Source: Cystobasidiomycetes sp. EMM_F5
Lineage: Eukaryota
DNA length: 20,000 nucleotides
Reading direction: 5' to 3'
NCBI GenBank assembly: GCA_051047955.1
Contig: JBPGPT010000027.1
Location: forward strand, 183,268-203,267
Shown: positions 16,801 through 20,000 of the stretch, piece by piece
How positions within the stretch are numbered: position 1 is the stretch's first letter
How the letters are laid out: every line of letters begins with the position of its first letter
The notes under the pieces: model-generated
Told to the model about the DNA's origin: nothing
Databases searched by the model: none
What the model saw: the letters and a program-made list of their open reading frames with translations, nothing else
Position numbers and translations under genes: made by a program

Positions 16801-18733
16801 GATGAAATTTGAGGTAGCCTAGGAACGAGATGGTCTGTAGTGTCTTTCCGAGTCCCATCTCGTCTGCCAGGATTCCGTTGATGCCGTTGTGGTAGAGCGA
16901 GATCATCCAGTTCAAACCTTGTACCTGATAATCTCGCATTTGACCACCCTTGACGACTGTATGGAGAAATTCAATCCCACGCGGACGAATCAAATAGGCG
17001 GAGACAATCACATCAGCCTATACTGCAGCCGATACTGAGTATTAAAGCAACCCACAGGCTGGCGATTCAGTAAAGACAAAACTATCATCCTCGCCATTCT
17101 GGTTCTCGCTACCATCAGCAAGGAGTTCAGCATCTTCCTGCTTTTCACTCTTTCTGCCTCTATGCAGTGCCGCCTTCTTAGTCGCAGCAGCAGCAGCAGC
17201 ACTACTTGCCGCTTTCTTGTCACGTGCGGCTTCGCTGTCCTCAAGAAGCAATGCGAACTCTGGATCTCGCGATTTTTTGAGATTGATAAAGTGTTGAAAG
17301 AGATCGGTCTGCCCGAGGAGATACGAGAAACGCTTGATGGAATCGGCGGCCTGTCATTCCCAAAGGAGAAATAGCGTGCAAGGAAGAAGAGTTCGGTGGA
17401 CGGAAGCGACGCGAAGACAAGCATGGACGGGTAGACGGTAAGCGGAAATTGTTACGGCAAAATACACAAAAGACCGGGCCGTGCGTCAGTCCAGCTGCTC
17501 CACTCGGACGTGTGAGACAGGCGACTACCCACCTTCTTGTCATTCACACCCCGCCTTGCTGCAGAGAGCTGAGATTTCTGGGCTGCCCGTTTTTCCTGTC
17601 GATGACGCGCCGTGTTCCAAAGTAGTACATAATGACATGAATGGCACATCTTTGATCAGCCTACTCCACTCCTTGCAGGTGTTGTCAAACGTCTCACCTT
17701 TATACGGCGAGAGACAGGGCGTGTGATGCGTTGTATTACAGGTAGTTTCAATGACAAGGATGACGCGTGACGCATCTCCATCAGCCCACACCCACTCCCT
17801 CTTTACATCTCATGTCAAACCACCCCACCTTTTTAGCACTCCTCTTATTCTGATTCTCCAACCTCTCTTTCAGCTTTTCCTTTTGTCTCTCCGTCATCTT
17901 TTTCGGCGTCGTCTTTACTCCGGTACCCCCCTCGTCATCCAACGCAATCTCATCATCGTCGTCATCGTCTGACGAGTTGTCGGAGTTTGATGATGCTAAA
18001 TCCATCTCTAGCTCGTCCCTGTCGTCCTCGTCGGGAAGTGTCGATCTGGATAGTTTGGATGGTCCTGCTGGTTGGGGAGCTACAGAGGGCTGTTGGTGAG
18101 CGGGAGAATATGAGATGGAGAGGGAGGATGGGGGAGAAGCGTGTAAAGAAGGCAAAGAGAGCATGTCGGTGAGTGGGAGAAATAAGAGATGGACAGGGAG
18201 AGCGTGCAAGATGAGGGAGAAGTGAAGAACGGGGATTGCAGAGAGAAAGACGGATGAGAAAGAGAACGGGGGATTTTAGAGAGATAGAAGAAAGCAGGAC
18301 GGAGGATCCAGAGGAAGGGCGGACAAGAGAAAGAACCGATACAAAAGAGAAAGAAAGAACGGAGAAGAGCATTAGAAGACGGAAGAGAAAGGAGAGAGAG
18401 AAAGAAAGAAGGAGAGAAAAAACATTAGCACTCCTCATACCTCACTCCTCAGGACCTTCACTCCTCGGGACCTTCGGCCCCTTGATCGTTACGGCCTTCG
18501 TCGTTAGAACTCACCTGCCTCGACGTCGCCCTGCTATCATCCACGACGATATCACTGAGCGTGTCATAATCCCCATTACTGCTCCCTTGCGCAGATGGCA
18601 CCTGAAGCATGTTTGCAGACTGTCCAATATCTCGACGCGTAGATTGGAGTCAGAGTGGGCGTGTCGATGGTATGAACGAGTGCTCGCAGTCAGTGTGGGT
18701 GTATATACTCTCAAGAGCACCACTCACGCTCAT
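13885..18733 (-). CDS. ISWI: ISWI-family SNF2 chromatin-remodelling ATPase (Isw1/Isw2-like), multi-exon
   Basis: [49 protein letters not shown] region (YSEEEDRF...[11 protein letters not shown]) and N-terminal [13 protein letters not shown]. Proposed exons: 18728..18733, 18515..18601 (or ..18619), 17829..18089, 17533..17595, 17056..17350, 15830..16956, 15031..15764, 14805..14971, 14531..14746, 13885..14474. The 5'-most exons are less certain than the core. Confidence 0.93.
18424..18505 (-). repeat. Intronic GAGGAGTG-repeat element, copy in ISWI intron 18090..18514
   Basis: AACGACGAAGGCCGTAACGATCAAGGGGCCGAAGGTCCCGAGGAGTGAAGGTCCTGAGGAGTGAGGTATGAGGAGTGCTAAT; three GAGGAGTG units; aligns by eye with 19802..19899. 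Confidence 0.8.
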
Positions 18734-18952
18734 CGTGTCCTTCTTGACCGAGTTGTCGGGATGTAAAGGATGGAGGGCATGATTTACAATGGAATGCGAG
18801 AGATTCTAATCGCGGAATAGTAGTCGCAGTCGAGGCATTACAGAGTGCAATAAGAGTGATGCACCGTCTACAATACATTCCTAATCACTTCATTATCCCT
18901 CTGCCAATATTTTGTAATCTCCCTCTGCTCTGCTCCATCCATCCATTCAATC
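18734..18952. promoter_or_regulatory. Short divergent intergenic region, putative bidirectional promoter of ISWI and PAM17
   Basis: 219 nt between the predicted head-to-head start codons (18733 on -, 18953 on +). Positional inference only. Confidence 0.5.
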
Positions 18953-20000
18953 ATGTCCCGCCTGTCGATGCTCTCTCGCCAACTGAGCACAGCCAGTCCA
19001 TCCCCGACGATGCAGTGGGGGCAGTACTTTACCCTGAGGAGGTCGAGGAGGAGGTGGGCGACGCTGGCAGCTGTCCCGACGTCGGTGGGGGGTGTGGTGT
19101 TGGGAGGAGGTGAGTGAAGCGAAGGGCCGTAGGTCCTGAGCAGTGGAGTAATGGCATTCGAGTATTCTACGAGGGCGCAGTCCGAGTACTGTAGCTTGTT
19201 TGATATTCTTTGTGTTTATGCACCGTCCTCCGTGGACTGAGCGTAGTCATTTATGCTGACGGTGGATTACTCTGTGTGTGTTGGTGTTTGTATTCTGTAT
19301 TATGTATTCTTCTATCCTTCTCCTCCTCTATTCATTCTCTCTTCCTTCTTTCCCTTCTTTCCCTCCTTTATCCTCTTCCCTTCCCTACTTTCTCTCTTAC
19401 TCTTACCTTCTCTTCTTCTCTCTCCATCTCTTCCATCTCTCCCCACCTCTCCCTCATTACACCTCCCTCCCATCTTCAGGCTACTTTGCCAACCTCGAGA
19501 CATCCCCCGGCTCGCTCATTGCAGGATTTGACCCTCTGATAGTGTGTGAGTATGTTTTACTCAATCTACATACTCACCACTGACTGTTTCACAACAGACG
19601 GCGCAGCAATGGTAGCGTGCGTCGCAGGGGGGTGGTTGAGTGGGCCGATACTGGGGAATGCAGTGTGGAGGGCGACGCATAGGAGCGTGAGGAAGGAGAT
19701 GGAGAGGATGGATGCAGTCTTTTTGAGGCATATTAGAGAGAGGAGGGTCGATCCGAGTAGGCAGAGTGTGAATAACCCAGTGCCGGATTATTGTGAGCAG
19801 CACGACGAGGAGCCGTAACGACGAAGGGCCAAACGACCGAAGGGCCGGAGGCCCTGAGGAGTGACGGTACTGAGGAGTGGAGGGCCGAGGAGTGCTTACT
19901 TTGTTGTGTCTTTTTTCTTCTCCTCTTCTTCTTCTCTTCTTCTTCTCTTCTCTTCTCTTCTCTTCTCTTCTCTTCTCTTCTCTTCTCTTCTCTTCTCTTC
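18953..20000 (+). CDS. PAM17: Mitochondrial presequence translocase-associated motor subunit Pam17; 3' end outside the window
   Basis: Exons 18953..19109, 19480..19545 and 19598..19792 give MSRLSMLSRQLST...WGQYFTLRRSRRR...GFDPLIVYG...GWLSGPILGNAVW...FLRHIRERRVDPSRQSVNNPVPDY. The intron starting at 19793 runs off the window. Confidence 0.9.
19121..19146 (+). repeat. Partial, degenerate copy of the intronic element in PAM17 intron 1
   Basis: GAAGGGCCGTAGGTCCTGAGCAGTGG, starting 11 nt after the first base of the GTGAGT donor; resembles the AAGGG(G)CCGRAGGYCCYGAGGAGTG core of the other two copies. Confidence 0.6.
19802..19899 (+). repeat. Intronic GAGGAGTG-repeat element, copy in PAM17 intron 3
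   Basis: ACGACGAGGAGCCGTAACGACGAAGGGCCAAACGACCGAAGGGCCGGAGGCCCTGAGGAGTGACGGTACTGAGGAGTGGAGGGCCGAGGAGTGCTTAC; three GAGGAGTG units ending in a branch-site-like TGCTTAC. Confidence 0.8.
19941..20000 (+). repeat. (TCTTC)n microsatellite within PAM17 intron 3
   Basis: 12 perfect TCTTC units up to the window end, preceded by degenerate CT-rich sequence from ~19909. Confidence 0.97.

Follow-up and report, generated by a model that had tools for sequence, protein, structure and literature searches.

The origin of new spliceosomal introns is still debated and, to our knowledge, clear cases of copied introns are few beyond Dothideomycetes and some algae. The introner-like elements (ILEs) of Dothideomycete fungi were reportedly described by van der Burgt et al. 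in 2012. Here we analyse an intron module in a 20 kb stretch of fungal DNA (the window, meaning the whole stretch), where two neighbouring genes, coding for an ISWI-type ATPase and for Pam17, have related sequence in three of their introns. The feature is most likely copied intron sequence, an unusual form of a known phenomenon rather than a new splicing signal; we give about an even chance to its being a family of duplicated introns that is small and confined to one neighbourhood, of either the introner-like or the low-copy intron duplication kind.

Comparison with described systems was made with excerpts of the papers cited. Copy number separates two of them: families with many copies are classed as ILEs, those with few as low-copy or same-gene intron duplications (LCI/SGD) (Collemare et al. 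2013, PMC3609843). ILEs are also longer than regular introns, and LCI/SGD-type duplications are listed for 23 of 24 fungi, one basidiomycete among them (PMC3609843). Introners have been reported from basidiomycete fungi (Gozashti et al. 2025, PMC12130899); in the dataset of that paper, as excerpted, Mixia osmundae, the nearest named relative by ISWI protein, has 0 introners. Distant branch points with AG-dinucleotide exclusion zones have been described for human exons (Gooding et al. 2006, PMC1431707). A keyword search of the literature on introners in Pucciniomycotina and Basidiomycota returned no report of an element such as the one described below.

The module is built of 16-nt tandem units, as detected by Tandem Repeats Finder, of two types: an A unit close to AACGACGAAGGGCCG and a B unit close to AAGGTCCTGAGGAGTG. 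The introns that carry it and its three copies are as follows:

18090..18514, minus strand: ISWI intron 1, 425 nt, GTGAGT...ACAG, junction placed by protein homology
19110..19479, plus strand: PAM17 intron 1, phase 1, 370 nt; relatives have an intron at the same position
19793..20000, plus strand: PAM17 intron 3, phase 1, interrupting PDY^Y (^ marks the junction); the window holds its 5' part and the rest lies beyond
18423..18514, minus strand: full copy 1 of the module, from donor to GCTAAT (18423-18428), with two A and three B units
19793..19899, plus strand: full copy 2 of the module, from donor to GCTTAC (19894-19899), with three A and three B units
19119..19147, plus strand: partial copy in PAM17 intron 1, with about one A and about one B unit

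ISWI intron 1 and PAM17 intron 3 have about 100 nt in common, with 83% identity over 64 nt, and a repeat search of the window returned inverted arms of 64 nt that are 83% complementary (18443-18506 and 19816-19879). Alignment gives both full copies the same order of blocks: GTGAG, ACGACGA, GCCGTAACGA, AAGGGGCCGRAGGYCC, three times GAGGAGTG, GCTAAT or GCTTAC, and a pyrimidine tract. This agrees with the sequence-only reading, which had proposed an element common to two long introns that extends from GTGAG to a branch-like motif and then enters a pyrimidine tract. An nhmmer profile made from the two full copies recovered both in the 20 kb (19793-19916, plus strand, E=1.3e-39; 18514-18406, minus strand, E=5.5e-34) and also detected the partial copy that had been noticed at the corresponding place in PAM17 intron 1 (19119-19147, plus strand, E=8.6e-4), which begins 10 nt past the donor; the same search of the 20 kb gave no fourth copy, the remaining matches having E>2. 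In local alignments the pairs scored z=26.8 (ISWI intron 1 with PAM17 intron 3), z=10.8 (PAM17 intron 3 with PAM17 intron 1) and z=6.8 (ISWI intron 1 with PAM17 intron 1), and for every pair the score was reached in 0 of 300 shuffles. The three copies, as had been claimed, are all sense to their own gene and so inverted on the genome.

The window contains 8 sites of the word GAGGAGTG where 0.83 would be expected, a count of 8 being reached in 0 of 200 shuffles. Three sites lie in ISWI intron 1 and three in PAM17 intron 3; of the remaining two, one is in ISWI exon 2 and the other lies antisense within an ISWI exon. Chance similarity between stretches of GC-rich low-complexity intron sequence, for which the repetitive build of the module speaks and nothing more, is refuted by this count, by the shuffles at z=26.8 and by profile matches at E 1e-34 to 1e-39, and we consider it next to impossible: the resemblance between the introns is real and clearly non-random.

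Further candidates for related sequence were rejected or remained at background level. Degenerate copies suspected by eye in ISWI introns 2 and 3 (GAGTGGAG before CTGAY) had alignment scores inside the shuffle range (z -0.8 to 1.9), and searches of the window for degenerate units with at most one mismatch yielded nothing beyond the three carrier introns. A metagenome scan with the three-unit pattern gave at least 116 loci, and the nhmmer profile weakly matched 4 of the 116 listed (E 0.001-0.01). Apart from L071, a short repeat of three units, these are heptamer microsatellites of the (GGAGTGA)n type, and none of the four is related to the module. At the end of ISWI exon 2 (17833-17847, minus strand), TAAGAGGAGTGCTAA matches the last module unit plus branch motif at 14 of 15 positions. 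It is the sole exonic sense occurrence of GAGGAGTG, and the next donor follows shortly; the match is probably due to chance. We roughly estimate that about 0.2 matches this good to any portion of the module would turn up in the 20 kb.

Splicing was judged from DNA and protein homology, and branch sites are predicted. We tabulated 10 complete ISWI and PAM17 introns together with the partial PAM17 intron 3, and examined closely the five with long AG-free zones:

ISWI intron 1, minus strand: last internal AG at intron position 83, GCTAAT at 87, AG-free zone of 339 nt (18092..18430, 83% pyrimidine, starting shortly 5' of GCTAAT and ending at the acceptor)
PAM17 intron 1, plus strand: last internal AG at intron position 136, GCTGAC at 147, AG-free zone of 231 nt (19247..19477, 83% pyrimidine, beginning 9 nt before GCTGAC at 19255-19260)
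PAM17 intron 3, plus strand: last internal AG at intron position 99, GCTTAC at 103, AG-free zone of at least 108 nt (AG absent from 19893 to the window end; CT tract at 19900..20000)
ISWI intron 3, minus strand: last internal AG at intron position 37, CTRAY-like motif at 44, AG-free zone of 142 nt
ISWI intron 4, minus strand: last internal AG at intron position 37, CTRAY-like motif at 40, AG-free zone of 59 nt

In all five of these longer introns a CTRAY-like motif lies 3-11 nt past the last internal AG, and the first AG after it is the acceptor (for PAM17 intron 3, no AG follows through the window end). A strict CTRAY, expected at about 1/256 positions, is found no more than 12 bases from the last AG in four of the five, which by a rough estimate is very unlikely to be chance. 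Mononucleotide shuffles of the four zones with enough A and G to be informative gave probabilities of 0.07, 0.012, 0.07 and 0.17 for the absence of AG. We infer that branching occurs at the CTRAY-like motifs and that splicing uses the first AG downstream as acceptor. With the branch predicted at GCTAAT or GCTTAC, the module would be the complete donor-to-branch segment of ISWI intron 1 and PAM17 intron 3, and the CT tract a spacer. ISWI intron 3 (17351-17532, minus strand, 182 nt) lacks the module but is laid out alike, with 142 AG-free nt between ACTGAC at position 44 and the acceptor, and distant branch sites may be a general habit of the host genome.

The CT tracts themselves are repetitive. 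The AG-free zone of ISWI intron 1 holds internal duplications of 38 nt and 74 nt, and the last ~40 nt of this intron are duplicated ~74 nt upstream (18160-18215 against 18086-18140, minus strand). The true acceptor reads ACAG whereas the upstream duplicate reads ACATG and contains no AG, which fits selection against a competing AG in the zone. The visible end of PAM17 intron 3 is filled by a (TCTTC)n microsatellite of 16 copies with 93% matches (19919-20000, plus strand), which passes the window edge. Given these microsatellites and local duplications, the CT tracts look like products of slippage. Among the introns of the window only the three module carriers have long pyrimidine tracts on the sense strand, the other two such tracts being coding sequence; module and CT tract thus occur as a pair, as the copying of entire introns would predict.

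This arrangement resembles the human AG exclusion zones (PMC1431707, as excerpted) in that a branch-like motif lies far 5' of the acceptor and is followed by a long AG-free, pyrimidine-rich stretch. It differs in that the branch sites here are predicted, and in that the zones extend over 231-339 nt in a fungus with ordinary introns of 52-99 nt. The zones suggest that in this host a branch site can lie hundreds of bases away from its acceptor.

The genes named in the sequence-only reading were identified correctly. On the minus strand, Pfam matches to SNF2-rel_dom (1.2e-99), Helicase_C and SLIDE define an ISWI-type ATPase, and the plus-strand gene matches Pam17 (6.2e-25). The two genes are adjacent and point away from each other, their start codons being at 18610 (minus strand) and 18953 (plus strand). 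The ~340 bp that separate these start codons (18611-18952) are CT-rich directly 5' of the PAM17 ATG. The ISWI protein is 78% identical to that of Mixia osmundae and 73-76% identical to those of Rhodotorula, Leucosporidium and Sporobolomyces, while PAM17 exon 3 has 69% identity to Cystobasidium minutum. Judging by the names on the best protein matches, the host is a basidiomycete near Pucciniomycotina; the protein collections searched contained no close relative of it. The exons that flank the carrier introns are:

18515..18610, minus strand: ISWI exon 1, 32 codons counted from the ATG
18953-19109, 19480-19545 and 19598-19792, plus strand: PAM17 exons 1-3, placed by spliced-protein alignment and the Pam17 profile

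Protein alignments confirm the predicted splice junctions. The spliced junction between ISWI exons 1 and 2, SRQ^PS, sits in an N-terminal motif of basidiomycete ISWI proteins (D-K/T-LSD...SR-x-PS); an ungapped alignment block covers the junction in 61 of 120 ISWI homologues, and the LSD core of the motif is present in 74 of the 120. Spliced PAM17 aligns without gaps to P0121 and P0123 over the junctions of introns 1 and 2. For intron 3, the Pam17 profile ends at 138/165, which is the end of exon 3, and the protein of the window's own ORF, P0126, ends in ...NNPVPDY before reading through into the intron.

Intron positions in relatives were deduced from homologous ORF translations that read into introns. 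In P0122 and P0125, unrelated sequence gives way to GYFANLE exactly where PAM17 intron 1 lies, and both have an insertion at the position of intron 2. Further downstream, five relatives (P0122, P0124, P0125, P0127 and P0128) read ...SVNNP followed by V-S, V-C or V-R, as GTGAGT-like donors encode, and in P0124 VPDYYGEK resumes after 25 codons, the intron there being short, at 75 nt; read-through and resumption thus indicate a phase 0 intron at NNP^VPDYY in these five. In the window NNPVPDY is exonic, and PAM17 intron 3 lies 10 nt downstream of NNP^V, in phase 1. The break at NNP^V recurs in 8 of 153 Pam17 homologues (the five above plus P0134, P0177 and P0187), and 104 of the 153, the window ORF counted, are continuous across the region; several break after PDYY or PDYYG, and a break after PDY is found in 1 of 153, namely P0126. 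As far as these translations tell, PAM17 introns 1 and 2 are old, whereas intron 3, which carries a full module, is at a lineage-specific position. The read-through ORFs among the homologues P0121-P0273 suggest that fungi have at least four intron positions within the ten codons NNPVPDYYGE (after NNP, after PDY in the window only, after PDYY and after PDYYG); introns seem to turn over unusually often in this short segment.

In the family of duplicated introns that we favour, the shared element would be the donor-to-branch-site half of a small set of related spliceosomal introns. Each member would consist of a GTGAG donor, one to three A units, a GGGCC/GGYCC hairpin and one to three B units; in the full copies a branch-like GCTAAT or GCTTAC would directly follow the last unit, and then an AG-free, CT-rich spacer whose first AG is the acceptor. 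The copies would have arisen by copying of intron sequence between nearby sites, after which slippage would have altered the number of units and tandem duplication would have enlarged the CT spacer wherever no AG resulted. Several observations lead to this reading: the homologous part is exactly the functional 5' half, a CT spacer is always present, all copies are sense, the carriers are unusually long, and one full copy occupies an apparently new position. Both the origin by intron duplication and the direction of copying are our own deductions from the sequence; PAM17 intron 1, with its old position and the shortest array, may be the source, and its pairwise scores with PAM17 intron 3 (z=10.8) and ISWI intron 1 (z=6.8) are compatible with copying from it into both. 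With three related adjacent introns, one at an ancient position and one at a position unseen in relatives, the locus offers source, copy and decay in compact form, decay being readable as slippage of units and growth of CT tracts under a rule of avoiding AG.

Length is in line with this picture. The carriers measure 425 nt (ISWI intron 1), 370 nt (PAM17 intron 1) and more than 208 nt (PAM17 intron 3), against 52-99 nt for six ordinary introns of these two genes. The carriers are the longest introns, as the sequence-only reading had stated, but the module is absent from ISWI introns of 233 and 182 nt.

A number of points weigh against the duplicated-intron reading. Just two full copies and one partial copy were seen in the window, all inside 1.8 kb, and the full copies are 83% identical rather than near-identical. 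The partial copy lies in PAM17 intron 1, at an old and conserved position, which shows that the sequence can occupy a pre-existing intron. Homology of the CT tracts cannot be demonstrated (z of about 2.5 against mononucleotide shuffles, the score being reached in 1-6 of 300), and the flanks of ISWI intron 1, compared by eye, repeat nothing but a common CAG. The relatives from which intron positions were read are only 63-77% identical in exon 3, and the positions derive from read-through ORFs. As for structure, the three introns fold no more stably than dinucleotide shuffles (z +0.89, -0.46 and +1.94); their 5' parts gave z -0.13, -2.98 and -0.62, so that just one of the two full modules (z -0.13 and -2.98) has an outstanding fold. 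This absence of excess stability led us to discard RNA structure as an explanation.

The unit structure of the module brings in a first competing account, in which a 16-nt minisatellite or dispersed repeat entered existing introns and spread locally by gene conversion, orientation and adjacency to the donor being coincidence or the result of tolerance. The arrays and the hairpins at their A/B boundaries are:

18429..18475, minus strand: B-unit array, 16-nt period, 3.1 copies, 87% matches, sense unit AAGGTCCTGAGGAGTG (Tandem Repeats Finder)
19817-19846, plus strand: A-unit array, 16-nt period, 1.9 copies, 93% matches, unit AACGACCGAAGGGCCA (Tandem Repeats Finder)
18467..18481, minus strand: hairpin GGGGCC-GAA-GGTCCC, present in centroid structures
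19842..19854, plus strand: hairpin GGGCC-GGA-GGCCC, present in predicted folds
19124-19136, plus strand: hairpin GGGCC-GTA-GGTCC, within the partial copy in PAM17 intron 1

These 16-nt arrays have the head-to-tail units of 10-60 nt by which minisatellites are defined, and the number of units varies between copies (2A+3B, 3A+3B and ~1A+1B). The clustering of all copies in 1.8 kb, with none in the remaining 18 kb, is as this account would have it, and the partial copy in PAM17 intron 1 also fits a repeat that enters existing introns and is spread by local conversion; there, ~100 nt of unrelated sequence lie between the units and GCTGAC. Yet the full copies are bounded precisely by a donor and a branch-like motif, and sense orientation and an accompanying CT tract are common to the three copies; PAM17 intron 3 is off the ancestral position; and gene conversion requires flanking homology, which the exons do not provide. 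We regard the minisatellite account as possible but on the unlikely side. Of the corresponding proposal in the sequence-only reading, the word minisatellite is apt for the 16-nt build and local spread is likely, but an introner-like intron repeat family fits better.

A second competing account holds that the module is a selected cis-acting splicing element, in which purine-rich GAGGAGUG repeats and the hairpin define a branch site 100-340 nt from the acceptor, through a bound factor or through pairing with the CU tract. Conservation within the module lends it some weight: of the aligned columns, 24 of the 25 within GAGGAGTG units are identical, compared with 46 of the 65 in the rest of the module (Fisher p=0.01), and none of the six units in the full copies departs from the motif. 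The A/B boundary has a 5-6 bp hairpin, GGGCC-NNN-GGYCC, in 3 of 3 copies, with varying loops and G-C to G-U changes, and in minimum-energy folds the last unit is paired with the CU tract while the branch motif is exposed in a loop. These same folds, however, have energies within those of shuffles, so that purine-pyrimidine pairing follows from composition, and with n=3 copies the conservation may equally reflect recent common descent or homogenisation. Rfam gave no family match: the best hits reached 20.1, 19.3 and 12.8 bits, where the gathering scores are 39.8, 95.5 and 40. Moreover, the ISWI introns of 233 and 182 nt do without the module, the latter in spite of its 142-nt AG-free zone, and these two introns leave the idea that the element serves the splicing of long introns as a general rule unsupported. 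We judge selection for such a function to be quite improbable as the explanation of the module, although the better conservation of the GAGGAGTG units leaves open either some cis-acting role or homogenisation.

Set beside Dothideomycete ILEs (PMC3609843 and Collemare et al. 2015, PMC4457414, as excerpted), the duplicated-intron family shows several of the same traits: related, sense-oriented spliceosomal introns in unrelated genes, with their own donor, branch motif and pyrimidine tract, a length above the ordinary and one apparently lineage-specific position. The canonical donor (GTGAGT or GTGAGC), the motif GCTAAT, GCTTAC or GCTGAC, the CT tract and an acceptor at the first AG are all present, the acceptor of PAM17 intron 3 lying beyond the window. 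The differences concern number, structure and build. ILEs come in tens to hundreds of near-identical copies, against two full copies and one partial copy seen here, at 83% identity; ILEs have stable predicted structures, whereas the window introns have no excess folding stability, a contrast to be read with the note that the published criterion compares ILEs with regular introns and ours used dinucleotide shuffles; and the host is a basidiomycete. The 16-nt units and the very long AG-free CT spacer are not described in the excerpts of the ILE literature that we compared. The proposal of an introner-like family remains the best fit, on account of the donor-to-branch span, the AG-free CT tract and the unseen position of PAM17 intron 3, with the qualification that the position of PAM17 intron 1 is conserved.

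The LCI/SGD classes (PMC3609843, Table 1, as excerpted) are matched in that a few similar introns occur within one gene (PAM17 introns 1 and 3) and in another (ISWI intron 1). These classes were set by near-identical introns in BLASTN, in contrast to the diverged introns here, where homology is provable only for the donor-to-branch half.

With transposon-type introners (PMC12130899, as excerpted) the locus shares an apparently new intron position, which fits gain by insertion; terminal inverted repeats, a target-site duplication and coding capacity were, on the other hand, not seen in the window, which ends before the 3' end of PAM17 intron 3. The folds of ISWI intron 1, in particular, showed no terminal inverted repeat, and a target-site duplication for PAM17 intron 3 would appear as a repeat of the GTGCCGGATTAT region at the intron 3' end, beyond the window.

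A more far-reaching version of the introner idea is that the copies belong to an active introner family of an unsampled Pucciniomycotina lineage. What moves would be a complete half-intron (donor, 16-nt tandem repeats and branch site) that either drags along or seeds an expandable AG-free CT tract and creates introns, as at PAM17 PDY^Y, preferentially near its source, with the invariant GAGGAGUG repeats acting as its own branch-site enhancer. One conceivable route of spread is reverse splicing into transcripts of the divergent neighbour while they are being made. We consider this version unlikely.

Finally, a side observation concerns ISWI intron 2 (17596-17828, minus strand, 233 nt). Within it, an internal ...TAAAG, whose AG is at 17699-17698, abuts GTGAGA, whose GT is at 17697-17696, and each half contains a GCTGAT. 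This could be a pair of abutting introns separated by an exon of zero length, or a recursive splice site.

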